Source: Candidatus Aldehydirespiratoraceae bacterium
GTDB taxonomy: Bacteria; Actinomycetota; Acidimicrobiia; Acidimicrobiales; Aldehydirespiratoraceae
DNA length: 64,000 nt
Direction: 5' to 3'
Assembly: GCA_965214565.1 (NCBI GenBank)
Contig: OZ243951.1
Coordinates: 2,579,166 to 2,643,165, forward strand
Position numbers and translations under genes: made by a program. How positions within the stretch are numbered: position 1 is the stretch's first letter; each line of letters opens with the position of its first letter. Below, piece after piece: positions 1,660-64,000 of this stretch. Below the pieces are notes generated by a model. That model did not search any database. It had not been told where the DNA came from and saw only the letters and a list, made by a program, of their open reading frames with translations.

Positions 1660-5004
<3,345 letters not shown>

Positions 5005-5013
5005 GCCTGCGAT

Positions 5014-5110
5014 GAGTGGGCACTGGGTGGCTAAGCACTGGGTGAGTGGGCACTGGGTGGCTAAGCACTGGGTGAGCGAGCACTGGGTGAGCGAGCACTG
5101 GGTGAGTGAG
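5014..5110. repeat. 15-bp imperfect tandem repeat, about 6.5 copies (GAGYGRGCACTGGGT / GGCTAAGCACTGGGT)
   Basis: Read directly from the sequence. Fills the carB-pyrD spacer and is bracketed by the identical 10-mer GGTGAGTGAG at 4996-5005 and 5101-5110. Confidence 0.95.
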
Positions 5111-6027
5111 TGATGGTCGAGCTCACGACCTCGGTGGGCTCGGTGAGTCTCAAAGCGCCGGTGTTGACAGCCTCGGGCACGGTCGGTCACGGCGCGGAGT
5201 TCGCCCGTTACCTTCGTCCCAGCGAACTCGGTGCAATAGTGGTCAAGTCGATGAAGGCAACGCCGTTCCAGGGAAATCCCGCCCCGCGGGTTCACCCGAC
5301 CCCCGCCGGGATGATCAACAGCGTCGGACTTCAAGGACCCGGAGTGTCGCACTGGCTTGAACATGAACTGCCGGCCTTAGAGACCGCAGGCGCCACCGTC
5401 GTGGCCAGCATCTGGGGAAACACCGTCGACGAGTACCGTCAGGCAGCCGAGGCGCTGTCGGTGGCACCTCCGTGCGTAGTCGCGGTCGAAGTCAACGTGT
5501 CATGTCCCAATCTCGAAGACCGCAGCCGAATTTTCTCCCACAGTGCCCAAGCAACATGCGAAGCGATCGAGGCCACCAGTAGATGCGGCCGACCCCGTTG
5601 GGCCAAGCTCAGCCCCAATGCCCCGGACATCGCCGAGATCGCCGCGGCCGCACATTCCGCCGGTGCTGAGGCCGTCGTCTTGACGAACACCCTGCTGGCG
5701 ATGGTGATAGACCCCGAGACCCGACGCCCCGTATTGGGTGCGAAGCGAGGAGGTCTGTCGGGAGCAGCGATGCGCCCCGTGGCGGTTAGGGCGGTATATG
5801 ACGTGCACGAAGCGATCCCAGCTCTACCGATCGTTGGCGTCGGCGGCGTCGCCAGCGGCGTTGACGTGGCCGAGTTCCTTTTGGCCGGTGCCTCGGCGGT
5901 CGAGGTCGGCACTGCCACGTTCGCTGATCCTCGGGCGCCGCGACGAATCCTCGACGAGTTTGAACAGTGGTGCAAACGTCATGGCGTCACGCAACTCGCT
6001 GGAATCATCGGAGCGGGCCACGAGTAA
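5110..6027 (+). CDS. pyrD: dihydroorotate dehydrogenase, class 1 type catalytic subunit
   Basis: 305 aa with ...ASGTVG...NSVGLQGPG...VEVNVSCPN...LTNT...GGLSG...IVGVGGV.... Start is GTG 5110 or ATG 5113. Confidence 0.9.
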   Translation: MMVELTTSVGSVSLKAPVLTASGTVGHGAEFARYLRPSELGAIVVKSMKATPFQGNPAPRVHPTPAGMINSVGLQGPGVSHWLEHELPALETAGATVVASIWGNTVDEYRQAAEALSVAPPCVVAVEVNVSCPNLEDRSRIFSHSAQATCEAIEATSRCGRPRWAKLSPNAPDIAEIAAAAHSAGAEAVVLTNTLLAMVIDPETRRPVLGAKRGGLSGAAMRPVAVRAVYDVHEAIPALPIVGVGGVASGVDVAEFLLAGASAVEVGTATFADPRAPRRILDEFEQWCKRHGVTQLAGIIGAGHE

Positions 6028-6079
6028 CTATCGGCGCGGATAATTGCCTTCGTTTCTCTCGGCCTCTAGTGTTTCTGTC

Positions 6080-6394
6080 ATGTCTAACCCTCCAAAGTTG
6101 TCAGACGAGGCGCGAGCCGCAGCACTTGCAAAGGCAACCGAAGCGCGAAAGGCCCGTCGAGAGTTAAAGCAGTTGTTGAAGATGCGATCTTTGACTCTTG
6201 CCGAAGTTTTCGAAAAGGCCGACTCAGACGAAATCGTTGCAAAGACGAAGACGTTGGCCGTGATCGAGTCGCTTCCTGGGGTAGGGAAAGTCAAGGCCCG
6301 GCGTGCCATGGAAGACATCGGTATTGCGGAGAACCGCCGTCTTCGGGGTCTTGGCCAGAAGCAGAGGGCTGAACTTCTGGAGCGGTTCGGCTGA
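6080..6394 (+). CDS. mihF: integration host factor, actinobacterial type (mIHF)
   Basis: ...LPGVGKVKARRAMEDIGIAENRRLRGLGQKQRAELLERFG; conserved position upstream of gmk-rpoZ. ATG 6080 is preferred over the track start 6044. Confidence 0.85.
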   Translation: MSNPPKLSDEARAAALAKATEARKARRELKQLLKMRSLTLAEVFEKADSDEIVAKTKTLAVIESLPGVGKVKARRAMEDIGIAENRRLRGLGQKQRAELLERFG

Positions 6395-6426
6395 CCAGAG
6401 TCTGCTATGAGGCTGGTTGATCGACG

Positions 6427-6984
6427 GTGATTGCGGCCTCAGACCAGTTGGTCGTTGTCATCTCCGGCCCGGGTGGGGTTGGGAAGGGTACGCTGGTTGC
6501 CCGGCTGTTGGACCGGGACCACCGGCTCTGGCTCTCGCGTAGTTGGACGACCCGCGCCCGGCGTCCAGGCGAGTCGATGGAGGCATACCACTTCACGAAC
6601 AGGGAGTTCTTTGACCGACACATGGAGGCCGGCGGATTCCTCGAGTGGGTGGACTTCTTGGACTACCGCCAAGGCACACCGGTGGTACAGCCACCCCCGG
6701 GACATGATCTGGTCTATGAGATCGACGTCTACGGAGCCAAGCAGATCCGTGAGCACTTTCCCGACGCGCTGTTGGTTTTCGTCGATGCTCCTTCCCGTGA
6801 AGCCCAGCGGGCTCGCTTGGTCGGTCGCGGCGACCCCCCGGACAAGATTGAAGACCGCTTGGCCTGCGCCGACACCGAGTTGGCCACAGCGCGAGAACTC
6901 GGTGCGAGGATATTGATCAACGGCGACCTCAATCGGGCGCTCGAAGAGTTGGAAGCGTTGATTCGCGAGCGTCGCGGGAGCTAG
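6427..6984 (+). CDS. gmk: guanylate kinase
   Basis: P-loop VISGPGGVGKGT and ...SRSWTTR.RPGE..G..Y.F. Confidence 0.9.
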   Translation: MIAASDQLVVVISGPGGVGKGTLVARLLDRDHRLWLSRSWTTRARRPGESMEAYHFTNREFFDRHMEAGGFLEWVDFLDYRQGTPVVQPPPGHDLVYEIDVYGAKQIREHFPDALLVFVDAPSREAQRARLVGRGDPPDKIEDRLACADTELATARELGARILINGDLNRALEELEALIRERRGS

Positions 6985-7063
6985 TGCCGCTGCTACGCTT
7001 GTATGTCGGTTGAACACCACGCGGCTGACGACACAGTTCGTCGACGTCTCGGGAGAAGGCACA

Positions 7064-7372
7064 ATGGCACACGGCTATGACACGATGATGAATCCTTCGA
7101 TTGAGGGCCTCCTCGACGATGTCGGCTCCAAGTTCCGACTCGTCACGCTCTCTGCCATGCGGAGCCGCGAAATCACGAACTATGTGGGGCAACTCGGCCG
7201 AGGTATGGGGGCGTCGATACCTCCCCAGGTTGCGTCCACGGCCAGCAAGCCGTTGTCGATCGCCTTCGAGGAAATCGCTGCGGACAAGATCATCGCCGTC
7301 GACGTCGACACGGAAGCCGGAGCAGAAGCCGAATCCGAAGGTGGAACCGCTGCGGACTTTGTGGGTGCCTGA
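7064..7372 (+). CDS. rpoZ: DNA-directed RNA polymerase subunit omega
   Basis: ...NPSIEGLLDDVGSKFRLVTLSAMRSREI...; synteny gmk-rpoZ-coaBC. ATG 7064 is preferred over 7010. Confidence 0.85.
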   Translation: MAHGYDTMMNPSIEGLLDDVGSKFRLVTLSAMRSREITNYVGQLGRGMGASIPPQVASTASKPLSIAFEEIAADKIIAVDVDTEAGAEAESEGGTAADFVGA

Positions 7373-7399
7373 CCCGAGCAACAGGGCGGTGGCTGGCAC

Positions 7400-8656
7400 A
7401 TGACCACGCTCTCCGGTCGACGCATCATCCTTGGTGTGACCGGCGGAATCGCCGCCTACAAGGCGGTTGAGATCTGTCGTCGTCTAGTTGACGCCGGTGC
7501 GCATGTCACTCCGGTTCTTACTGCAGGCGCCCTGAAGATGGTCGGTGAGGCCACCTTCTCGGCGTTGGCCAGCGAACCGGCGCGCACTTCTCTGTTCAAC
7601 GATCCCTCGAGTCCGATTCCGCACACCGTCATGGGTCGCAATGCTGACTTGGTGCTGGTGGCTCCGGCGACGGCGAGGGTCATTTCCGATATTCGCACGG
7701 GACGCTCGGCTGATCTCTTGACGGCCACGATTCTCGCCACCCGGGCACCGCTGATGATCTGCCCGGCGATGCACACCGAAATGTGGGAACAGGTGTCTGT
7801 GCAGGAGAACCTCGAGGTGCTGCGTGGCCGTGGCGTGCATGTCGTTGATCCAGAGAGTGGCCGACTCGCTGGAGGAGACTTCGGCCTCGGGCGACTCGCC
7901 GAGCCGGCATCGATTGTGACTGCTGTCGGGAGCCTGCTGGCCCCGAACGATCCTGGTGGCCCGAGTGATCTTGGAGGCCAGAATGACCTTGGAGGGATGC
8001 GGGTGCTCGTCACCGCCGGCGGGACTCGCGAGCCAATTGATGCGGTCCGATTTGTGGGCAACCGGTCCTCAGGCAGACAAGGCCATGCCCTCGCACGGAA
8101 CGCGGCGGAACGAGGTGCTGACGTTGTGTTGGTTACAACCAACGCGCTAAGCGCTCCGGGCGGCGTTCGCATCGTGGATGTGTCCACGGCCGAGGAAATG
8201 CATCGTGCTTGCACCGCTGAAGCGCCCGAGGCTGACCTGGTCGTGATGGCCGCAGCGGTCGCAGACTTCCGGCCGCACAGAGCAGTGGATCGCAAACTCA
8301 AGAAGGACGAGGGGATCCTCAGTGTCGAGTTCGAGCCCACGGCCGACATCCTTGCGTGTCTGGGTGCCACCAAACCCGATGGTCAGGTCCTGGTCGGATT
8401 CGCTGCCGAAACCGACGACGTCGAAATTAACGCGGCGGAAAAGCTCGACAAGAAGAACCTGGACATAATCGTGGCGAACGACGTGTCCAAACCCGGTGTC
8501 GGATTTGAGCATGAGACCAACGAGGTTGTAGTGCTACGGGCGGACGGAGTCCGGCAGCACCTTCCGCTGTGCAGCAAGGGCGAGGTGGCCCGTGTCGTGC
8601 TTGATGCCGCCGTTGAAACCCTTAACCGACTCGACAATTCACAGGAGCAAGAGTGA
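7400..8656 (+). CDS. coaBC: bifunctional phosphopantothenoylcysteine decarboxylase / phosphopantothenate-cysteine ligase
   Basis: 418 aa. N-terminal flavoprotein domain ([12 protein letters not shown]..., PAMHTEMW) and C-terminal DFP domain ([22 protein letters not shown]). Confidence 0.92.
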
Positions 8657-54897: not shown

Positions 54898-57800
54898 TAC
54901 TAGACACCTCCCTGCCAATTCAGGAATGTTGCGCTTGGATCAGGGGGAAGTCTGAACACTGCCTGTGCGACGCCGCGCCGCCTATCGCGGACCATGATAC
55001 ACAAAAGATAACTAAGATCATTGTTTAGCATTGAAATTCTTGAGAGCCGACCCTAGCCTCCAGTGCCTGGATCCACCGGTGAGGGCCGTGACGACCAGCA
55101 AGGCTGTCGGCGCTTGTTGCGATCGAATCGCAGAGCCGGTAGCGCGGCAACGCTGGGATCTGGTTAGGGTCGTCGGTTCGTGAACAACTTCCTCCTTGAT
55201 CGCGATCCGACGACTTGGGCAGCACCGGAGCGGTTTCCGTCTGCGCTTGTCCCTGGCGGAGTGTTCGTCCAGGACGCACCGAGCGGCTTGGAGGTGACGG
55301 TGGTCCGCGCTACGCGGCGGCCGTCCGCTGCGGACTTGCGCGACGGATGGTCGAAACGGCGGGCTGGCCGCGCCAGCCCTGTGCTGCTCGTGGCGTTCTA
55401 CCCGACGACCGAAGGCGAGCGGGTGTCTCTGTGTGGTCCAATCGGAGACCCGCCGCTGGTGCATCGCGACCTCGAGGTCTCGCAGGTCGAGAGACTGGCT
55501 GAAGTTGCACTGAGTGAGCCGAGCCACCATGCCGCCACTCGCTTCCTGCTGGCAGCGGCCTCGGAGTTGGACTCCCCGTTTCCGGGTCTCCGAAACGTCG
55601 GTTTGTTGGCGACCCAGGAGCTCAGAGTCGGCGTTCCTGATCGGCCCGACTGGGTTTCGGCCACCCGCAAGGCCTCAGTCTTGCTGGGAAGGCGGGGGCG
55701 TCGTCTGGTTGAGGGCCTGGGGTTCCGAATCGAAACTTTGTCTACCAACGCCCAGATGCTCACAATCAACAACCGCAAGCACGCGGTGGCGGTGTTCTGT
55801 GATGACGACGAGCCTTTCGAGGCGCCGTCGGGCCGGTTCGACAACACCTCACCGGTTTCTAGGGCGCTTGCCCTGGCCGATCAGGAGCGGGTCGATTGGG
55901 TGATCCTCACACGATCCTCGGAGATCCGCCTCTACGCCGCCCGTCCCGACACTGGCGTGGGTCGGAAGGGCCGGGCTGAGACGTTCGTGGAATTGAACCT
56001 TTCCTTGGTTCCCGACGATTTCGCGGGCTATCTCCAATTGCTGTTCTCCGCCGACGCCCTTCGCGACGACGGCACCCTCGAGCAGATTCTTGAGCGGTCG
56101 GCTGACTATGTTGCCGAGTTGGCTGTTCGCTTGCGTGAACGGGTGTACCACGAAACGGTGCCGACCCTGGCCAGAGCCGTCGCCGCTCGGCTCCAATCTG
56201 AACCGGGCAGCGAAGGCTTGAACGAGAGCGACCTGGCCGGAGCCTACGAGCAGGTGATGGTGATCCTGTTCCGGCTGTTGTTCGTGGCCTATGCCGAGGA
56301 CAAGGACCTGTTGCCCTACCGCTCCAACGGCAAGTACGCGGACCACTCGCTGTCGCACAAGGCCCGTCTGCTCGCGGAGGATCGCCACAAGGGCGCAGAC
56401 GACTACGACGCGGGCTCCACTGATCTGTGGGACGACGTGAAGCAACTGTGGGGTGCAGTCAATCTGGGCAACCGCGACTGGGGCGTGCCTGCCTACAACG
56501 GTGGCCTCTTTTCTTCTGATCCCCAGGTGAGTCATTCGGGGGCGGCCATTGCTGAGATCACACTCAACAACGCCGAGTTCGGCCCAGCCCTGTCAGCAGT
56601 GCTGGTGGACGAGGGGTCCGAGGCCGAGGGCGTGGGCCCGGTGGACTTCCGCTCTCTGTCGGTGCGGGAGTTCGGCACCATCTATGAAGGCCTGTTGGAG
56701 TCGAAGCTGTCGGTGGCCCAAGACGACTTGACCGTCAAGTCCATCAAGGGCAAGGAGAATTACGTACCCGCCTCCGATGATGACGAGGTGGAGGTGCGAG
56801 CAGGTGAGGTGTACTTCCACAACCGTTCCGGTGTCCGTAAGGCAACCGGCTCCTACTTCACCAAGCCGTTCGCTGTCGAGCACCTGCTCGACAGCGCCCT
56901 TGAACCGGCCCTAGACGATCACATCGCCCGCTTGGACGGCCTGCGGGAATCCGGTGACGACGCCGCGTTGGCCGAGGCGTTCTTCGACTTCCGATGTGCC
57001 GACATAGCCATGGGCTCGGCTCACTTTCTGGTGGCCGCGGTCGACCGCATCGAGGCCCGCCTGTCTGCGTGGTTGACCCTTCATCCCGTCGCGGCGGTGA
57101 CTGCGGAACTCAACCGGCTGCGCAACACAGCGCTCGAGGCGCTGGGCGATCTCGCCGACGCCACCGAAGTCGAACAGTCTTCCCTGCTGCGCCGCCAGGT
57201 GGCCCGGCACTGCATCTATGGAGTCGACAAGAACAGCGTCGCTGTCGAACTGGCCCGGCTCGCGATCTGGGTACACACCTTCGTTCCCGGTTTGCCGCTG
57301 TCGTTCCTCGATCACAACCTCGTCCAAGGCGACAGCCTGACCGGCGTGGCTTCGGTCGACGATGCAGCTGCCGCCGTGAAGCCGAGGGGAAGCAGAGCGG
57401 ATTCGTCGTTGTTCGTGTATCTGTTGGAGGAACTGCTGGAAGAGTGTCTGGGGCCGTTGGCCAGGCTCGGGCGCCTCAACGATGCCGACAAGTCCGAGAT
57501 CGACGAAGCACGCGCCGCGCGCGCAGAGACCCGCGAAGCTGTCGCACCGGTCAGGTCGGTGTTCGATGTGGCTTCCGCGGTTCGTGCCGGGGCCATCAAG
57601 ATTCACAGCGATTTCGATTTCAGCCCGGAGAGCATCGCCGCGTTGGCGCAGGAACCAGAAGTTCAGGAAGCTGTCCGCCGGCTCACGCCCGTCCACTATC
57701 CGACAGCTTGGCCTGAGGTGTTCGCCCGAACCGGAAAGAGCGGCTTCGACTGTCTGCTCGGCAACCCACCCTGGGAGAAGGTAGTGGTGGACCGAGAGGT

Positions 57801-58142
57801 CTGGTGGGGCATGCACTTGCCCGGTGTCCGCGCGCTTCCGGTGGCGAAGCGCCGCGCACAGATTGATGCTCTGGAGGCTGCTCGGCCGGATCTGGCTGCT
57901 GAGTTCGAGAATGAGCACAAGCGGACTGAAGCATTGAAGTTGGTGCTGCGAGCCACGTTCGCGAACCTCGGTTCTGGCCAGACCGATCTCTATAAGGCCT
58001 TTGCCTGGGCGAATTTCGCACTCTGCAGTGAAGGCGGAAGGCTCGGTATTGTGCTTCCCCGTTCGGCTGTGTCAGATGCGGGCATGGCCAACTGGCGCAA
58101 GGAGATCGTCGCCGTACCTACCGGAGGCGCACAGGTCCGCGC

Positions 58143-58158
58143 GGGGGGGGGGGGGGGG
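58143..58158 (+). repeat. G16 homopolymer tract inside the methyltransferase coding region
   Basis: Counted directly: gc + 16 g + tg. Confidence 0.95.
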
Positions 58159-58169
58159 TGTCGACGCGA

Positions 58170-58351
58170 ATATCGGTGGCGACCGTCATCAACCACAAGG
58201 GATGGGTGTTCGAGGGGGTCCACAACTCCTACACGGTGGCGCTGGTGGCGGTCACCCGATCCTCTCGGTCGTCACCTGCCTCAACACCAAGCAGTGGGCG
58301 TTCGACGGTCTCGACGGCCGATACACGGTCGCGCTGGTCTCGGTACGAAAG
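58170..58351 (+). repeat. two adjacent paralogous 30-codon modules offset by 92 nt (different frames)
   Basis: A1 (58170-58259) is ISVATVINHKGWVFEGVHNSYTVALVAVTR. A2 (58262-58351, -1 frame) is LSVVTCLNTKQWAFDGLDGRYTVALVSVRK. Confidence 0.85.
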
Positions 58352-58604
58352 CTCAACCGCAGAGCTGAACCAAGGGGGTGGCTTTGACGGCGACCCCGAC
58401 GAGCCCCACGTTGCCGTCTACCCGGGGCCTGCGAGTTCACTGACCCAGTTTCACGAGTTGGTGGACGGTAAACCCGAGCTGATCCCAGTCTCTGAGTTCA
58501 CGCGGTGGTCCAACACTGCCGCGTTCCCCCAGATACCGACCCGCCCTGCCTTTCGGGTATGGCGCAAGATCAAGGCGCATCCCCGCTTCGACGGTGCAGA
58601 TCTG

Positions 58605-58624
58605 CACACACACACACACACACA
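58605..58624 (+). repeat. (CA)10 dinucleotide repeat inside the methyltransferase coding region
   Basis: Counted directly; encodes HTHTHTH in the 58158 frame. Confidence 0.95.
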
Positions 58625-58625
58625 C

Positions 58626-58836
58626 CGCTGGCGATTCCGTCCGGTCCAAGGCGATCTCAACTCAACGAACGACAGAAAGAGGTTTCTCAAGGACGACGGG
58701 CGTGGGGCTTCCATCCAGTCTCCGAACTTCACTCGACTCACGACAGGTCCAGATTCGTGAGCGACGATGGTATTTCCGCCCGTCACGAGAACTCGACTCC
58801 ACCAATGACAGGAAACGGTTCATGAAAGACGATGGA
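58626..58836 (+). repeat. three tandem paralogous 22-25-codon modules, each in a different reading frame (offsets 74 and 65 nt)
   Basis: B1 is RWRFRPVQGDLNSTNDRKRFLKDDG (frame of 58158). B' is AWGFHPVSELHSTHDRSRFVSDDG (frame of 58505). B2 is RWYFRPSRELDSTNDRKRFMKDDG (frame of 58594). Confidence 0.85.
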
Positions 58837-59594
58837 GCGGCCGCAGGCACAGCAACCCCAACGAATCTCGTCTGGCCTGTTTGCTCTGGAAAGAGTTTCA
58901 ACCTCTGGCGGCCGGATACAGGCGACTATTACGACAGCGTTGTTGCCGCGAGTATCACCGCGCACCTACAAGAAAAGCGATATCGGCGGAGCAGAGTCAA
59001 GTCTTCAGCTTTCTCTCAGATCGATGAAGCGCTGCTGGCCGATCCAACAACTCTGGCCTGCATGAGAGCAAGGATCGTATTTCGCAGGGTAGCTAGGACT
59101 ACCGATACTCGTACTTTTGTGTGCGCCCTTGTCCCACCCCACAGAGTCACCACAGAAGCCGCCTCCTATTTCGAACAGGTCCGAGGGGAGATATCCGACG
59201 AAGCGTATCTGTTGGGGCTTCTGTCGTCGATGATTTTCGATTGGCAACTCCGCCGTGTCATGGAATTGACCCTCAGTTTTACGGATCTTATGGCGACATC
59301 CCTCCCCGACCCTGGTAAGGGTCACCCGGTGCGTGATCGGGTTGTTGCGCTTGCTGGGCGGCTCGCCGCGACGGATGAGAGGTATGCGGATTGGGCTGCC
59401 GAAGTCGGTGTACCTATCAGGTCAGCGAACGATGAGGAGACCAAGCAGGACCTGATCTGCGAACTCGACGCGTGCGTCGCCCACCTCTACGGGTTGGATG
59501 AAGACGACCTCGCGGTGATCTACGAGACCTTCAGCGAAACCGTCGACTACACCGACCGCTACGCGGCGGTCCTTCAACACTTCAGGAGGTTGGC

Positions 59595-60314
59595 ATGAGC
59601 AATGCATACGATGAATCGGCCGATCAGATCGGTTGCATCGACGGCTCGGTCCTTCGTGTAACCATGTGCGGAACGGAGGTCCACCTGAAATTCGGTGACA
59701 AGATCGCGCCGCTTTCCCATATGGCAGTTGAGCGCCTAACGACGCTGCTGCAATCAAAGAGCCGAGACAGTCCTGTATCGGTCGCAGCACCGAAAGGGCC
59801 GTCTCGACGCATGGGCGCGGCTGTCAATCCCGGTGTTGCCGAACTCCTCGGGACCGGTCTCGTCGACGACGGCACCGTACTCACGCTTCGCCACCGTGGA
59901 ATTGAGCACACCGCGACTGTGAGCGCGAACGGTCAGATCGCATTCGACGGACGTCTCTACGACAGCCCGTCGGGTGCTGCACAGGCTGCTTGTGAGGGTG
60001 CATCCGTGAACGGCTGGACCGCATGGAAGCTCTTCGACGGTTCGGCTATCGACGAGAAGCGCTGGCTGTTTCGCGCCGGTGACTTTCCGGGCCAAGGCCA
60101 CAGCTACGCGGATTCCAGCGCAAAGGAAATGCGACAAATTGCCCTCAGGTGGGTGGAGCACGCACTAGATGCCCGTCTTGACCCAGCCGAACCCGGCGAC
60201 GAAGTTGAGGTCTTTCTTGGCGGCCATGGGTATGCGGAAAGCACCTTGGAGTCGTATCGAAGGCACCTCCGTAATTGGCGAGACCTTTACGGCGGTGGCG
60301 CGGCAGAGCGATGA
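59595..60314 (+). CDS. RAMA/DUF4357-like modified-DNA reader domain protein
   Basis: ATGA overlap with the methyltransferase stop. Central ...LLGTGLVDDGTVLTL.HRG.EHTATV.ANGQI.FDGRLYDSPSGAAQAA.EGASVNGWTAWK... pattern. Confidence 0.6.
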   Translation: MSNAYDESADQIGCIDGSVLRVTMCGTEVHLKFGDKIAPLSHMAVERLTTLLQSKSRDSPVSVAAPKGPSRRMGAAVNPGVAELLGTGLVDDGTVLTLRHRGIEHTATVSANGQIAFDGRLYDSPSGAAQAACEGASVNGWTAWKLFDGSAIDEKRWLFRAGDFPGQGHSYADSSAKEMRQIALRWVEHALDARLDPAEPGDEVEVFLGGHGYAESTLESYRRHLRNWRDLYGGGAAER

Positions 60315-60735: not shown

Positions 60736-63700
60736 ATGAATGGGAATGTGAAGCCGGAGTTCGTCGTCAATCGTGACGGTAGGACAGTGTCTGAGGCGCT
60801 CTCCGGGTTCATCTCCCATGCGGCCACCGGGTTTGTCGGTGGGGCATCCCTCGATGTCGTCACCGCCTACTTCAACGTCGGCGGCTACGCGTTGCTCGCT
60901 GATTCGCTGAACCAACTCACCGGTGTGCGACTGCTCCTCGGAGCGGAGCCGACCCCGCCGGAGAACCCCCGCAGGGAGCTGCACTCGGAGTCGGCGAATC
61001 CCCAGCGGGCAGCGCGTAGCCGTTTGCGTCGAGCGCTCGACGGTCATGAGCAGAACCTCATCATCGAGCGGGACCACCTCGGATTCAGTCAGGAAGTCGA
61101 TGCCGCGACTCGCCGACTGCTTGAGTGGCTTCAACTCGACACGGTCCAGGTGCGCCGGCTTGAGCACCGCTTCATCCACGGCAAGGCGTTCCTGGTCAGC
61201 GACCATTCCCACGGTGTGGTGGCCGGATCGTCGAACCTCACGTATGCCGGGTTGACGACCAACCTGGAGTTGAACCTCGGGAACTATTCCCCTCACGTCG
61301 TCGGGCAGGTGAAGGACTGGTTCGATGAGTTGTGGGCCGAGGCGGTCGACTACGACCTCGCAGCGCTGTTCGAGTCCCGCTTCGAGCCCCATTCCCCGCA
61401 GCTCGTGTACCTGCGGATGCTGTGGGAGTTCTACGGCTCGGAATTACAGGATGAGGCGTCGTCCGAAGGGGCATCGCAGATCCACCTGACCTCTTTCCAG
61501 TCCGACGGGCTGTTCCGTGCTCGACGCATCCTCGAAGAGCGTAACGGGGTGCTGATCGCCGATGAGGTCGGTTTGGGCAAGACGTTCCTGGCGGGGGAGT
61601 TGATTCGCGAAGCGGCGCTGGATCGTCGCCAGCGAGTACTGGTCATCACGCCGGCCACGCTGCGCGACGGGCCGTGGAAGGCGTTCAGGTCAGAGCACAA
61701 CCTGCCCATGGAGCTCGTGTCGTATGAAGAGCTCATGGCCGACGCTCGTTTGAACCCGGAGCACGCGTCGGCACACAAACTCGAAGCCACGATCAACGAC
61801 TACGCGATGGTGGTGATCGACGAAGCCCACAATCTGCGCAATCCCAGTACACAACGGGCATCTGCGATCCGCACGCTGTTGGCCGGATCACCGCCCAAGA
61901 AGCTGGTGATGCTCACCGCCACCCCGGTGAACAACAGCTTGTGGGACCTGTACCACCTGCTCGGATACTTCCTGCGCAACGACGCTGCGTTCGCCGATGC
62001 AGGCATCCGCTCGCTCCGCGACCACTTCGCCAAGGCGATGAATCTAGACCCAGACGACCTGACCCCTGAGCATCTCTTCGACGTGCTCGACGCGGTGGCG
62101 GTACGGCGAACTCGGTCGTTCGTCAAACGCTTCTATCCCAATGACACGATCAGGGTCCGCGGCAAGGAGCAGGCCATCGTCTTTCCGACCCCACGGGTCC
62201 GCAAGATCGACTACAGGCTCGACGATGTGCTGCCCGGATTCTTTGACCGGTTCGCTCATGCCCTCGACCCCGAAGCCGGCGCCGATGATCCTGATGCTCT
62301 CAGCCTGGCACGGTACGCCCCGTCTCAGTATCACCTCGACAACGGGGTTGAGGCGTATGAAGTCCAGCTCGCAGGCCTGCTGCGGTCGGGTTTGCTGAAA
62401 CGCTTCGAGTCTTCACCGTACGCCTTCGCCGAGACATGCCAGAAGATGGCCACGAGTCACGACGCATTCCTGTCGTTGCTCAACAACGGGCGTGTGGCCA
62501 CCGGCGATGCTCTGGCCGACTGGATCGCCACCGATTCCGACGAGATCGACGAGGCACATGCCGACACCTACCTCGACGCGATCGTCGGAGTGACCGACGA
62601 CGCTGCGGCCTATGACCTCGACCGCCTCCGTGAGCACGCCGAACGTGACCGAGACCTGCTCAGGTCCTTCGCGGCCGAGGCCCGAACCGTCACTCGATCC
62701 GATGATCCCAATTTGACTGTTCTGGTTGAGGAGCTTGCCGCTATCGCAGCCGAAGCTGCATCCGAAGGCATCGGTCCTGCCGATGAAGGAAACCGTCGCA
62801 AGGTGCTCATCTTCAGCTACTTTGCCGACACGGTCGACTGGATCTATGAACATCTCGTCGCCGTGGCGCAGAGCGATCAACGCCTAGCCCCATACAGGGA
62901 CCGCATCGCGTCGTTGTCCGGCAGTTCTGGCACTGACAGCAAGAAGTCGGTGCTCTGGGGATTCGCACCTCAAACCACCGATGCTCCTGAAGGCTTCAAC
63001 GATGACCTGTTCGACATTGTCGTGACGACCGACGTGCTCGCGGAAGGAGTCAACCTCCAACAGGCCCGCCACATCATCAACTACGATCTGCCCTGGAACC
63101 CGATGCGCCTGGTTCAACGACACGGACGGATCGACCGCATCGGGTCGCACCACAAAGAAGTCTTCCTGAGCTGCGTCTTCCCCGACGACCGTCTCGACGA
63201 TCTGCTCGGTCTCGAAGAACGCTTGCACACCAAACTCGCCCAAGCAGCCGCCAGCGTCGGCGTGGGCGAGGTGCTTCCCGACCAGGCCGCTCAGGTTGAG
63301 ATCAACTTCACCGAGACGCGAGAGGAGATCGAACGCCTTCGCAACGAGGATGCAGCAATCTTGGAACGGGGCGGCACCGGCCGAGGCGCACTGTCAGGCG
63401 AGGAGTTCCGCCAAGAACTGCGCCAGGCGCTCGAAGACAACGACCTGGCGCATCAGATCAAAGCGCTCCCCTGGGGATCGGGGTCGGGAATGGCGGTCGC
63501 ACCCGACGGGCGACCCGGTTACGTGTTCTGCGCCCGGATCGGCGACCACCCCCGACCGCTGTTCCGCTTTGTCGAGACCGGACCCGAGGCAGAAGTGGTC
63601 GACGAGACTCTGGCCTGCCTTCACATGGCCCGCCCCCCCTCAGGCTTCAATACGGAGCGGCGGTTGGCCGACACTGCCATCCATGGTGCCTTCGCTGCCT

Positions 63701-64000
63701 GGGAAACCGCCCGAGACCACATTGTCGACGGCTGGAACTTCATGGCCGACAAAGCCAACCTGGAACCGAAGATCGTCCCGCGCCTCCGCCGAGCGGCGGA
63801 GATCCTCCGAGAGAACCCACCGTCCCGACTGACTCAGGATGCGATCGACCGGGCCATCGACGCCATCAATGCCCCCTACTCTGAACGCACCATCAGAACC
63901 TTCCAAAAAGCCATGCAGAGCACCGGCGATCCGTCCGAACAAGCTGAAAAAATCCTCGGAGTGATCGACTCCCTGGGTCTGGAACCCTACGTCCCCCCTG
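60736..64000 (+). CDS. PLD-family (HKD) nuclease domain fused to an SNF2/DEAH helicase; 3' end outside window
   Basis: Not in the ORF track because it has no stop. I translated 1,088 codons without a stop. Motifs: HKD FIHGKAFLVSD...GSSNLT; helicase I ADEVGLGKT, II VIDEAHNLRN, III LTATPVNNS; V/VI VLAEGVNLQ...LPWNPMRLVQRHGRIDRIG. GGAG lies 7 nt upstream of ATG 60736. Confidence 0.85.
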   Translation, partial: MNGNVKPEFVVNRDGRTVSEALSGFISHAATGFVGGASLDVVTAYFNVGGYALLADSLNQLTGVRLLLGAEPTPPENPRRELHSESANPQRAARSRLRRALDGHEQNLIIERDHLGFSQEVDAATRRLLEWLQLDTVQVRRLEHRFIHGKAFLVSDHSHGVVAGSSNLTYAGLTTNLELNLGNYSPHVVGQVKDWFDELWAEAVDYDLAALFESRFEPHSPQLVYLRMLWEFYGSELQDEASSEGASQIHLTSFQSDGLFRARRILEERNGVLIADEVGLGKTFLAGELIREAALDRRQRVLVITPATLRDGPWKAFRSEHNLPMELVSYEELMADARLNPEHASAHKLEATINDYAMVVIDEAHNLRNPSTQRASAIRTLLAGSPPKKLVMLTATPVNNSLWDLYHLLGYFLRNDAAFADAGIRSLRDHFAKAMNLDPDDLTPEHLFDVLDAVAVRRTRSFVKRFYPNDTIRVRGKEQAIVFPTPRVRKIDYRLDDVLPGFFDRFAHALDPEAGADDPDALSLARYAPSQYHLDNGVEAYEVQLAGLLRSGLLKRFESSPYAFAETCQKMATSHDAFLSLLNNGRVATGDALADWIATDSDEIDEAHADTYLDAIVGVTDDAAAYDLDRLREHAERDRDLLRSFAAEARTVTRSDDPNLTVLVEELAAIAAEAASEGIGPADEGNRRKVLIFSYFADTVDWIYEHLVAVAQSDQRLAPYRDRIASLSGSSGTDSKKSVLWGFAPQTTDAPEGFNDDLFDIVVTTDVLAEGVNLQQARHIINYDLPWNPMRLVQRHGRIDRIGSHHKEVFLSCVFPDDRLDDLLGLEERLHTKLAQAAASVGVGEVLPDQAAQVEINFTETREEIERLRNEDAAILERGGTGRGALSGEEFRQELRQALEDNDLAHQIKALPWGSGSGMAVAPDGRPGYVFCARIGDHPRPLFRFVETGPEAEVVDETLACLHMARPPSGFNTERRLADTAIHGAFAAWETARDHIVDGWNFMADKANLEPKIVPRLRRAAEILRENPPSRLTQDAIDRAIDAINAPYSERTIRTFQKAMQSTGDPSEQAEKILGVIDSLGLEPYVPP

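Follow-up and report, generated by a model that had tools for sequence, protein, structure and literature searches.

Repeat-driven phase variation of restriction-modification (R-M) genes is known from the Type III mod phasevarions and from the Type IIG gene Cj0031 of Campylobacter jejuni (PMC4889913; PMC5909438; PMC7383803); as the abstracts of these reports present them, phase-variable methylases are ON/OFF genes, with one productive and two truncating frames. In Type I systems specificity is switched by recombination between copies of hsdS or of its target-recognition domain (TRD) (PMC7394358), and frameshift suppression at a phase-variable repeat has been described for mod1 of Mycoplasma bovis (bioRxiv 10.64898/2026.04.01.715767). 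The +1 frameshift of prfB has the consensus CTT_TGA_C together with an upstream stimulator of the Shine-Dalgarno (SD) type (PMC3711429). Here we analyse a 64 kb stretch of DNA (the window, meaning the whole stretch) from a Candidatus Aldehydirespiratoraceae bacterium, a sponge-associated member of the Acidimicrobiia, in which a single gene for a Type IIG-like/DrmMI-like N6-adenine methyltransferase spans positions 55180-59598 and holds a (CA)10 repeat followed by three copies of one module, B1, B' and B2, each in a reading frame of its own. Our results make it probable that this defence methylase gene contains two cassettes, each composed of a hypermutable repeat and of modules encoded in staggered frames. 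Our search of the literature found no description of such an architecture.

The two repeats and the modules behind them

The open reading frames (ORFs) 55180-58368, 58158-58760 and 58594-59598 are pieces of this one methyltransferase; they and all other features given below lie on the + strand. The N-terminal part, up to the first repeat (55180-58142), has codons starting at positions that leave a remainder of 1 on division by three (pos%3=1) and matched the PADLOC profile REase_MTase_IIG PDLC03620 with E=1.9e-199 over profile positions 53-987. The translation of its ORF contains the catalytic motif IV (NPPY/W/F) in the form NPPW, within LLGNPPWEKV. The last part of the methylase domain, which we call the M segment (GGGFDGDPDEPHVAVYPG...HPRFDG, 58374-58595, pos%3=0, placed by a tblastn segment map), covers positions 1060-1125 of the same profile, and the C domain, the remainder of the TRD (58837-59598), matched positions 1092-1372 with E=2.6e-43. 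Matches to Pfam Eco57I (E=4.9e-12) and to DrmMI (E=6e-66) were also obtained.

The B cassette opens with simple sequence repeat 2 (SSR2), the (CA)10 tract at 58605-58624, which lies in an interdomain linker. An earlier note on this DNA, made from the letters and a list of ORFs, had described this repeat and the three staggered copies behind it, and its coordinates and frames check out: B1 (RWRFRPVQGDLNSTNDRKRFLKDDG) occupies 58626-58700 at pos%3=0, B' (AWGFHPVSELHSTHDRSRFVSDDG) 58700-58771 at pos%3=2, and B2 (RRWYFRPSRELDSTNDRKRFMKDDG) 58762-58836 at pos%3=1, the last being fused to the C domain in the window. Their translations, of about 24 residues each, are WRFRPVQGDLNSTNDRKRFLKDDG, WGFHPVSELHSTHDRSRFVSDDG and WYFRPSRELDSTNDRKRFMKDDG, and their Trp codons, at 58629, 58703 and 58768, are separated by 74 and 65 nt, the offsets that put them in the frames 0, 2 and 1. 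When the M frame crosses (CA)10 it reads B1; (CA)9 would give B', and (CA)8 or (CA)11 would give B2 and the C domain. The frame arithmetic of the earlier note for nine, ten and eleven units is correct: stops are met at 58758-58760 in the B1 frame and at 58823-58825 in the B' frame, and the B2 frame is open to 59598. The predicted tail of the B1 product reads ...FLKDDGRGASIQSPNFTR..., and that of the B' path ...EVSQGRRAWGFHPVSELHSTHDR....

Each of the three copies scored 48-54 bits against a hidden Markov model of the module, and the three types recur in about 50 other species, so the triplication is not a product of chance. B1 and B2 share 17 identical residues, 11 of which (11/17) are written with different codons, in agreement with the earlier observation that these two copies differ mostly at synonymous positions; the B copies are old and have been kept as protein rather than as DNA. 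The boundary sequence between modules, GACGATGG, is invariant at all codon positions.

A second cassette, absent from the earlier note, is located upstream. Its repeat, SSR1, is a G16 tract at 58143-58158, the first repeat of the gene, and is followed by two modules of 31 residues, A1 (ISVATVINHKGWVFEGVHNSYTVALVAVTRS, 58170-58262, pos%3=0, the frame of the downstream M segment) and A2 (LSVVTCLNTKQWAFDGLDGRYTVALVSVRK, 58262-58351, pos%3=2, the -1 frame relative to A1). With G16, the N-terminal frame (frame 1) matches neither module and runs into a TGA at 58366-58368; G17 or G14 would read A1, and G15 or G18 would read A2. The window is therefore in the OFF phase at G16, with (CA)10 selecting B1, and in this assembly the frame that reads (CA)10 is cut off from the N-terminus. 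In the A1/M frame, the DNA of A2 is a stop-free linker rich in Ser, Thr, Pro and Arg (predicted A1-path linker peptide ...VAVTRSSRSSPASTPSSGR...). The two tracts G16 and (CA)10 are the sole long simple repeats within the 64 kb.

Conservation and selection in related loci

A scan of species-representative genomes yielded 80 loci, to which 13 contigs from ENA/JGI were added; six of these were found through homologous proteins and seven came from metagenomes, the latter being compared by blastn alone (two identical to known loci, five further relatives). Nearly all loci belong to sponge-associated Acidimicrobiia, such as Ca. Poriferisocius, Poriferisodalis and Aldehydirespirator, and many are chromosome-level. 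The layout of the window is common to about 50-57 species-level loci of this group. Wherever both A modules are present, A1 shares the M frame and A2 is read at M-1, with a single exception (L034, described below), and each B module is shifted by -1 from the one before it in all loci that have B1, B' and B2 in this order. The B types, that is, B1 (...VQGDLNATTDRHRF[LI]NDDG), B' (...VAE[LF]HATHDR..F[VM]NDDG) and B2 (...VRE[FL]DAT.DR.RFMNDDG), are distinct from each other and orthologous across about 50 species. An assembly artefact was rejected, as the same layout is found in dozens of independent assemblies, comprising chromosome-level metagenome-assembled genomes (MAGs), scaffold-level metagenomes and ENA/JGI contigs.

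Distant homologues consist of one ORF with one A, one B and no repeat, for instance in Arthrobacter (L074, 1367 aa) and in locus L080 (1376 aa), and the proteins P0005, P0013 and P0018 are likewise single-copy, repeat-free and encoded by a single ORF. Judging from these comparisons, this form is presumably the ancestral state. Loci lacking SSR1 mostly have a single A. Two further loci, L076 (ORF 3515-7873) and L047 (3461-7834), are intermediates: they keep a single full-length ORF with one A, their SSR2 repeat is in frame and translated into a repetitive peptide, and of their two B copies one is read out of frame as a linker. Four or five B modules are present in L066 (5778-6115), L048 and L073, and the extra B2 copies are still in successive -1 frames. 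Among the results of the protein search were also dozens of ORFs of 275-295 aa that consist of the C-terminal part only, from Acidimicrobiia and from MAGs of sponge symbionts, along with fragments that contain out-of-frame translations of A2 and of B1/B'.

Selection was assessed with a frame-agnostic procedure, in which loci were chosen by blastn to the window DNA and aligned as DNA, and the diversity of the columns was binned by pos%3 (19 unique sequences for the A region, 40 for the B region); module statistics based on regular expressions were set aside as ascertainment-biased. In the A region the most variable class was pos%3=2 over 58159-58257, the third codon position of A1, then pos%3=1 over 58258-58386, the third codon position of A2 and its tail, and pos%3=2 again after about 58375, the third codon position of M. 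Past SSR2 it was pos%3=2 over 58625-58708, pos%3=1 over 58697-58753 and pos%3=0 over 58760-58834, which are the third codon positions of B1, B' and B2, respectively. Because third-position variability tracks each copy's own frame, these alignments indicate that every module copy is under purifying selection in that frame. A DNA- or RNA-level repeat element was a candidate that we discarded, considering that variability has a period of three in each copy's own frame, that Tandem Repeats Finder detected no tandem DNA repeat beyond G16 and (CA)10, and that an Rfam search gave no match.

The stretches that a ribosome would have to cross outside their own frame are also free of stops. The DNA of A2 is stop-free in the M frame in 55/56 loci and that of A1 in the A2 frame in 56/56; the DNA of B1 is stop-free in the B' frame, and that of B1 plus B' in the B2 frame, in 50/50 loci each. 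Over all the required read-through segments this amounts to one stop per ~8,500 codons, compared with 3.1% per codon when the C domain is read out of frame, and the unused third frame of the A region contains a stop in 25/56 loci.

The positions of the repeats are fixed across both sites and their units are species-specific, including C9-28, CA, CGGT and several 10-mers. At SSR1 most related loci bear a repeat (G8-16, C9-15, TC/CT, or units of 5, 7 or 10 nt), and at SSR2 almost all do (C10-28, CT/TC, GA, CCGA and others), the longest coding repeats at this second site being (GACC)62 in L032 (~6571), (GGGAGCA)41 in L022 (~6637) and (AGCCA)36 in L035 (~6752). Across loci the gene has 0.41 repeats per kb and its flanks 0.015, a 28-fold enrichment. 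The tracts also differ between close relatives. Two contigs of the same species, L083 and L084, have an identical C ORF and about 60 single-nucleotide differences over 10.8 kb, and their only indel within the gene is (TC)15 versus (TC)22 at SSR1, a change that takes the gene out of the A2 phase and into the A1 phase. Tract length at SSR1 and/or SSR2 varies within pairs of loci whose flanking coding DNA is 97-98% identical; the pair L085/L086 has the same SSR2 length and added no polymorphism. In approximate counts, the assembled SSR1 phases are 26 with no module, 14 with A1 and 14 with A2, and the assembled SSR2 phases are 18 with B1, 18 with B' and 16 with B2. Together, the conservation in about 50 species, the selection on each copy in its own frame, the stop-free read-through, the variation in repeat length and the spread of phases support the idea, already raised in the earlier note, of a frame-selecting cassette.

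Ends of the frames and setting of the gene

The A2 frame ends in ...RKLNRRAEPRGWL and a stop at a site that matches the +1 frameshift site of prfB, AGGGGGTGGCTTTGAC (AGGGGG-TGG-CTT-TGA-C, 58373-58388), in which a 3-nt spacer separates an SD-like GGGGG from CTT TGA C. A ribosome that slipped by +1 on CTT would be exactly in the M frame (GAC GGC GAC ...), giving the predicted junction peptide ...AEPRGWL followed by DGDPDEPHVAVYPGPASS..., and it is at this site that the phase of variability switches to the M frame; the non-shifted path reads the same nucleotides as Gly-Gly-Gly-Phe-Asp. In the 57 loci with both A1 and A2, the A2 frame ends in CTT_TGA (37), CTT_TAA (1) or CCT_TGA (13) in a total of 51/57, and GGGGG is located exactly 3 nt upstream in 51/57, with the variants AGGAGG, CGGAGG and AAGGGG. 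The spacer is variable (TGG, TAT or CAT), and the 14 nt of GGGGGTGGCTTTGA are all invariant, including sites that are synonymous in both frames. Elsewhere in the 2.16 Mb of loci the motif was found only as four upstream copies in three loci (L022, L048 and L066), and the window has one copy where chance would predict 0.06. It is absent from the 12 loci in which only one A module was detected and A1 was not merely degenerate-looking. At this site L062 has GGGGGTATCTTTGA, the sequence of E. coli prfB.

These features point to +1 frameshifting at the end of A2, and the site may represent a case of the RF2-type +1 frameshift outside prfB. Reinitiation after A2 was considered in place of frameshifting and rejected, since the M frame has no start codon for about 25 codons past the stop. 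Locus L034 (6396-6753), where A1 lies outside the M frame, lacks the prfB-like motif, and an additional (C)12 tract separates its A2 from M; this arrangement may be a different solution to the same purpose.

The B frames also end in a conserved manner. In most relatives each of them stops about 19 codons past its own module. In B' and B2 these stops arise from the F-[V/M/L]-N codons, and at that position B1, which has no module before it, has mostly F-[L/I]-N, and W, F, R, H or N in some species. The B1-frame stop falls at +55 of B' in 45/51 loci (GTGA 30, ATGA 12, TTGA 2, ATAA 1), and the B'-frame stop at +55 of B2 in 42/51 (ATGA 22, GTGA 18, TTGA 2). In the window, the GTGA at 58757-58760, inside B', is the B1-frame stop overlapping a GTG of the B' frame, and the ATGA at 58822-58825, inside B2, is the B'-frame stop overlapping an ATG of the B2/C frame. 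With the ATGA at 59595-59598, these overlaps link the frames of B1, B', B2/C and a downstream RAMA-domain ORF, and from their arrangement they may form a termination-reinitiation relay.

In 25 loci, among them the window, the last B and the C domain are joined in one ORF, and elsewhere C is a separate ORF; the B2-C fusion of the window is the minority arrangement. The separate ORF begins (M/V)-[ST]-x-VWPVYKG, and its ATG (17 loci) or GTG (~10) overlaps the B2-frame stop, an overlap that suggests translational coupling of C to the B2 frame. The proposal that the repeat chooses the C-terminus has to be revised accordingly. Since B1 and B' have been conserved in spite of frames that end ahead of the C domain, the comparison implies that cores ending in B1 or B' would be useful, with the TRD supplied in trans.

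Two tandem TRD ORFs are present in L019 and L030 (both 6380-7420), and also in L009, L012, L016, L017, L044, L053 and L073. In these loci the first TRD ORF contains, close to its end, a third repeat (G13-18 in several loci such as L019 and L030, G11-24 over the whole set). The second ORF begins with MSDATPSS..., and its ATGA start overlaps a different frame of the first ORF; this explains many 'MSDATPSS' proteins of the databases. The third repeat may control a choice between the two TRDs.

The modules were placed on an AlphaFold model of the single-copy homologue P0005, not of the window protein (predicted local distance difference test, pLDDT, 89; predicted template modelling score, pTM, 0.87). 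A Foldseek search with this model returned CamA, BREX PglX/BrxX, M.BseCI, M.TaqI and BpuSI (E 1e-12 to 1e-8), so that the predicted fold matches that of a gamma-class adenine methylase with a C-terminal TRD; a sequence search of the PDB with the reconstructed protein gave no match. In the model, SSR1 maps to the loop after helix 284-296, and A is a beta-hairpin (residues 297-330) of the methylase catalytic domain that carries W.F.G and resembles motif VIII (F196 in M.TaqI). SSR2 maps to a low-confidence interdomain linker (residues 390-409), and B corresponds to the first TRD strand (411-415) and the following loop. As the two repeats map to a loop and a linker, the repeats and the out-of-frame stretches would fall in loops, and the duplicated units appear from the model to be self-contained structural elements.

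Downstream of the methylase, a RAMA-domain ORF (59595-60314; Pfam RAMA, E=4.5e-15) has the ATG that overlaps the C-domain stop. It is followed by a gene for an HKD/PLD nuclease and SNF2 helicase (60736-63969, running off the window end) that matched the PADLOC 'HKD+Snf2' profile (2.5e-52) and DrmD (7e-44), is 62% identical over 1091 aa to its counterpart in L081 (tblastn), and is found downstream in 81/85 related loci. This gene probably encodes a partner of the methylase. Type IIG proper is defined by an endonuclease activity that resides in the methylase polypeptide itself; no nuclease domain was identified at the N-terminus of the methyltransferase, in-polypeptide endonuclease activity not having been specifically tested. 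Because of the separate HKD-SNF2 gene downstream in nearly all loci, the system may be DISARM-like and not a self-contained, true Type IIG enzyme. Genes of toxin-antitoxin type (RelB/YafQ, PIN) are located between or beside methylase and helicase in L081 (5926-6453), L083 (9521-10015) and L085 (5840-6564). The wider neighbourhood of the window gene is made of ordinary chromosomal genes (PDH E1, RNase H, an epimerase). A same-species copy of the window was not found by exact-protein look-up of the RAMA ORF, nor by searching the JGI metagenomes with the B1 24-mer.

Proposed mechanism, its rivals and known systems

We propose that replication slippage alters the length of a repeat and hence the frame downstream of it. 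The structural element that follows is encoded once per frame, as A1 and A2 past SSR1 and as B1, B' and B2 past SSR2. A ribosome in any of the served frames would then read one intact copy, the other copies serving as a stop-free flexible linker. The A1 path is already in the M frame and the A2 path would be returned to it by a prfB-type +1 shift, the third SSR1 phase being OFF. Each B frame stops about 19 codons past its own module, at an NTGA inside the next one, and in most species the last B-frame stop, overlapping the TRD start, may hand ribosomes over to the TRD ORF. What is elsewhere an ON/OFF switch would in this way become multi-state, with SSR1 giving A1, A2 or OFF and SSR2 giving B1, B' or B2, to which some relatives add a third repeat and a second TRD ORF. 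The phenotype that separates the B1, B' and B2 phases could be module function, linker length, a fused versus a split enzyme, or TRD dosage; these are candidates.

Several points weigh against this proposal. The steps of +1 frameshifting, reinitiation and within-clone switching are deduced from sequence, and 13/57 loci have CCT_TGA instead of CTT_TGA, a departure from the prfB consensus. The loci are phylogenetically related and their counts are non-independent, and repeat lengths in metagenomes can be mis-assembled, which makes the phase counts approximate. In the window and about 12 other triple-B loci with the B2-C fusion, a TRD would be made in the B1 and B' phases only by way of reinitiation. 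Finally, the proposal does not explain what phenotype would maintain selection on SSR2, should the enzyme be functional in all three SSR2 phases.

A bolder extension, which we put forward only tentatively, is that the gene is frame-multiplexed, the reading frame acting as an address that picks among functionally different modules and thereby generates combinatorial isoforms plus an OFF state; under the same tentative reading, the modules would be two hairpins resembling motif VIII, three TRD-anchoring strands and, in relatives, two TRDs. If this were true, one locus would stochastically yield isoforms that differ in their specificity, their activity or their resistance to phage inhibitors; the frame-resolving hardware would consist of a prfB-type +1 shift, recruited for this use, and of a stop/start relay, and the coding strategy would be new to any organism.

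The earlier note had set beside its cassette the possibility that the copies are fossils of serial out-of-frame slippage duplications, in a gene that is dead or dying and in which a single copy ever mattered. It is true that the N-terminal ORF of the window is broken at G16 and ends at 58368, that gene callers split the gene in many genomes, and that distant homologues carry one copy of each module; that note had counted single-module homologues together with decay of B1 and B' as evidence against a cassette, and what we found is single-copy distant homologues on the one hand and intact copies in about 50 species on the other, with orthologous type-specific sequences. The comparative data contradict decay in other respects as well, since third-position variability follows each copy's own frame, stops are limited to one per ~8,500 read-through codons, and the frameshift motif is invariant and confined to loci with a duplicated A; recent horizontal spread of one sequence is excluded by the divergence of the loci, which is 50-90%. 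We give this explanation almost no credence. Hardly better is the idea that serial -1 ribosomal frameshifts at the GACGATGG boundaries join B1, B' and B2 into one polypeptide. Each module does lie in the -1 frame of the preceding one, and the boundary does not vary, but its invariance is explained by dual coding (DDG in one frame, RRW in the next); moreover, the boundary has no slippery X XXY YYZ heptamer, conserved stops occur 19 codons past each module, and single-copy homologues need one B only.

Two other explanations deserve more attention. The repeats might be kept for linker length or as a mutational hotspot, with the copies protecting the gene from frameshifts, the isoforms being equivalent and nothing being switched. 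Such pure buffering would agree with the location of the repeats in loops and linkers of the model and with SSR2, where every phase gives an intact B module and the assembled phases are uniform (18/18/16). Nevertheless, units that are not multiples of three persist at two sites in many different forms, which argues for selection on frame-shifting mutability; SSR1 retains a true OFF phase, which is the commonest assembled state (26/54), and the B types keep distinct conserved residues (QGDLN, AELH.TH and REFD). On this balance we regard buffering as unlikely. Alternatively, the frame could be chosen at the level of RNA or of the ribosome, if the polymerase or the ribosome slipped on G or C tracts and produced a mixture of isoforms from each genotype; many of the tracts are indeed long homopolymers (G8-16, C9-28), and frameshift suppression has been reported at the repeat of a phase-variable mod gene (bioRxiv 10.64898/2026.04.01.715767). 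Against this, differences in DNA length between near-identical genomes were directly observed. Many species use units of four to ten nucleotides, such as (GACC)62 and (GGGAGCA)41, and we know of no evidence for transcriptional slippage on repeats of such units. RNA-level choice as the explanation of the locus therefore seems quite improbable to us, although choice at the DNA level and at the RNA level are not mutually exclusive.

The design is a selected solution and not an accident, because it is conserved across dozens of uncultured sponge-symbiont species. Phase variation by repeats is usually described as binary, and here the coding sequence appears to have been rebuilt so that several frames are productive, which offers a new system for studying how defence methylases diversify. 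The locus also carries a warning for annotation, as gene callers and pseudogene filters split or discard such genes; dozens of 'hypothetical' ORFs of 275-295 aa in the databases are pieces of this methylase gene.

In comparison with described systems, the locus shares with phase-variable R-M genes a hypermutable coding repeat in a defence methyltransferase, whose tract length sets the frame and varies among close relatives. It differs from them in having two or three repeats, each followed by an element that is re-encoded in other frames, so that an intact module is read in 2/3 phases at SSR1 and in 3/3 phases at SSR2, in contrast to the ON/OFF R-M genes. The site at the end of A2 is like that of prfB in its SD-like GGGGG, its 3-nt spacer, its CTT TGA C and its downstream ORF in the +1 frame. 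Unlike prfB, it is located outside a release-factor gene and has no obvious autoregulatory logic, it would rejoin a repeat-selected frame to the main frame, and a quarter of the loci use CCT TGA.

Helicobacter pylori futC has a cassette formed by a poly-C tract and a -1 frameshift. As in this gene and in M. bovis mod1, a translational change of frame would partly undo the frameshift caused by the repeat and give more than two expression states; those two genes restore the same protein at a lower level, whereas the rescued path of our locus would carry a different copy of the module. The lic loci of Haemophilus influenzae carry, ahead of a tetranucleotide repeat, several start codons that lie in different frames, and resemble the methylase gene in that redundant, frame-specific signals make more than one phase productive, with graded output. 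The lic loci duplicate start codons upstream of the repeat, while here modules of 25-31 residues are repeated downstream of it in staggered frames. Lastly, alternative copies of parts of a methylase, chosen stochastically at one locus, are also a property of hsdS switching in Type I systems, but there the choice is made by site-specific or homologous recombination of in-frame cassettes, and here it would be made by the reading frame.

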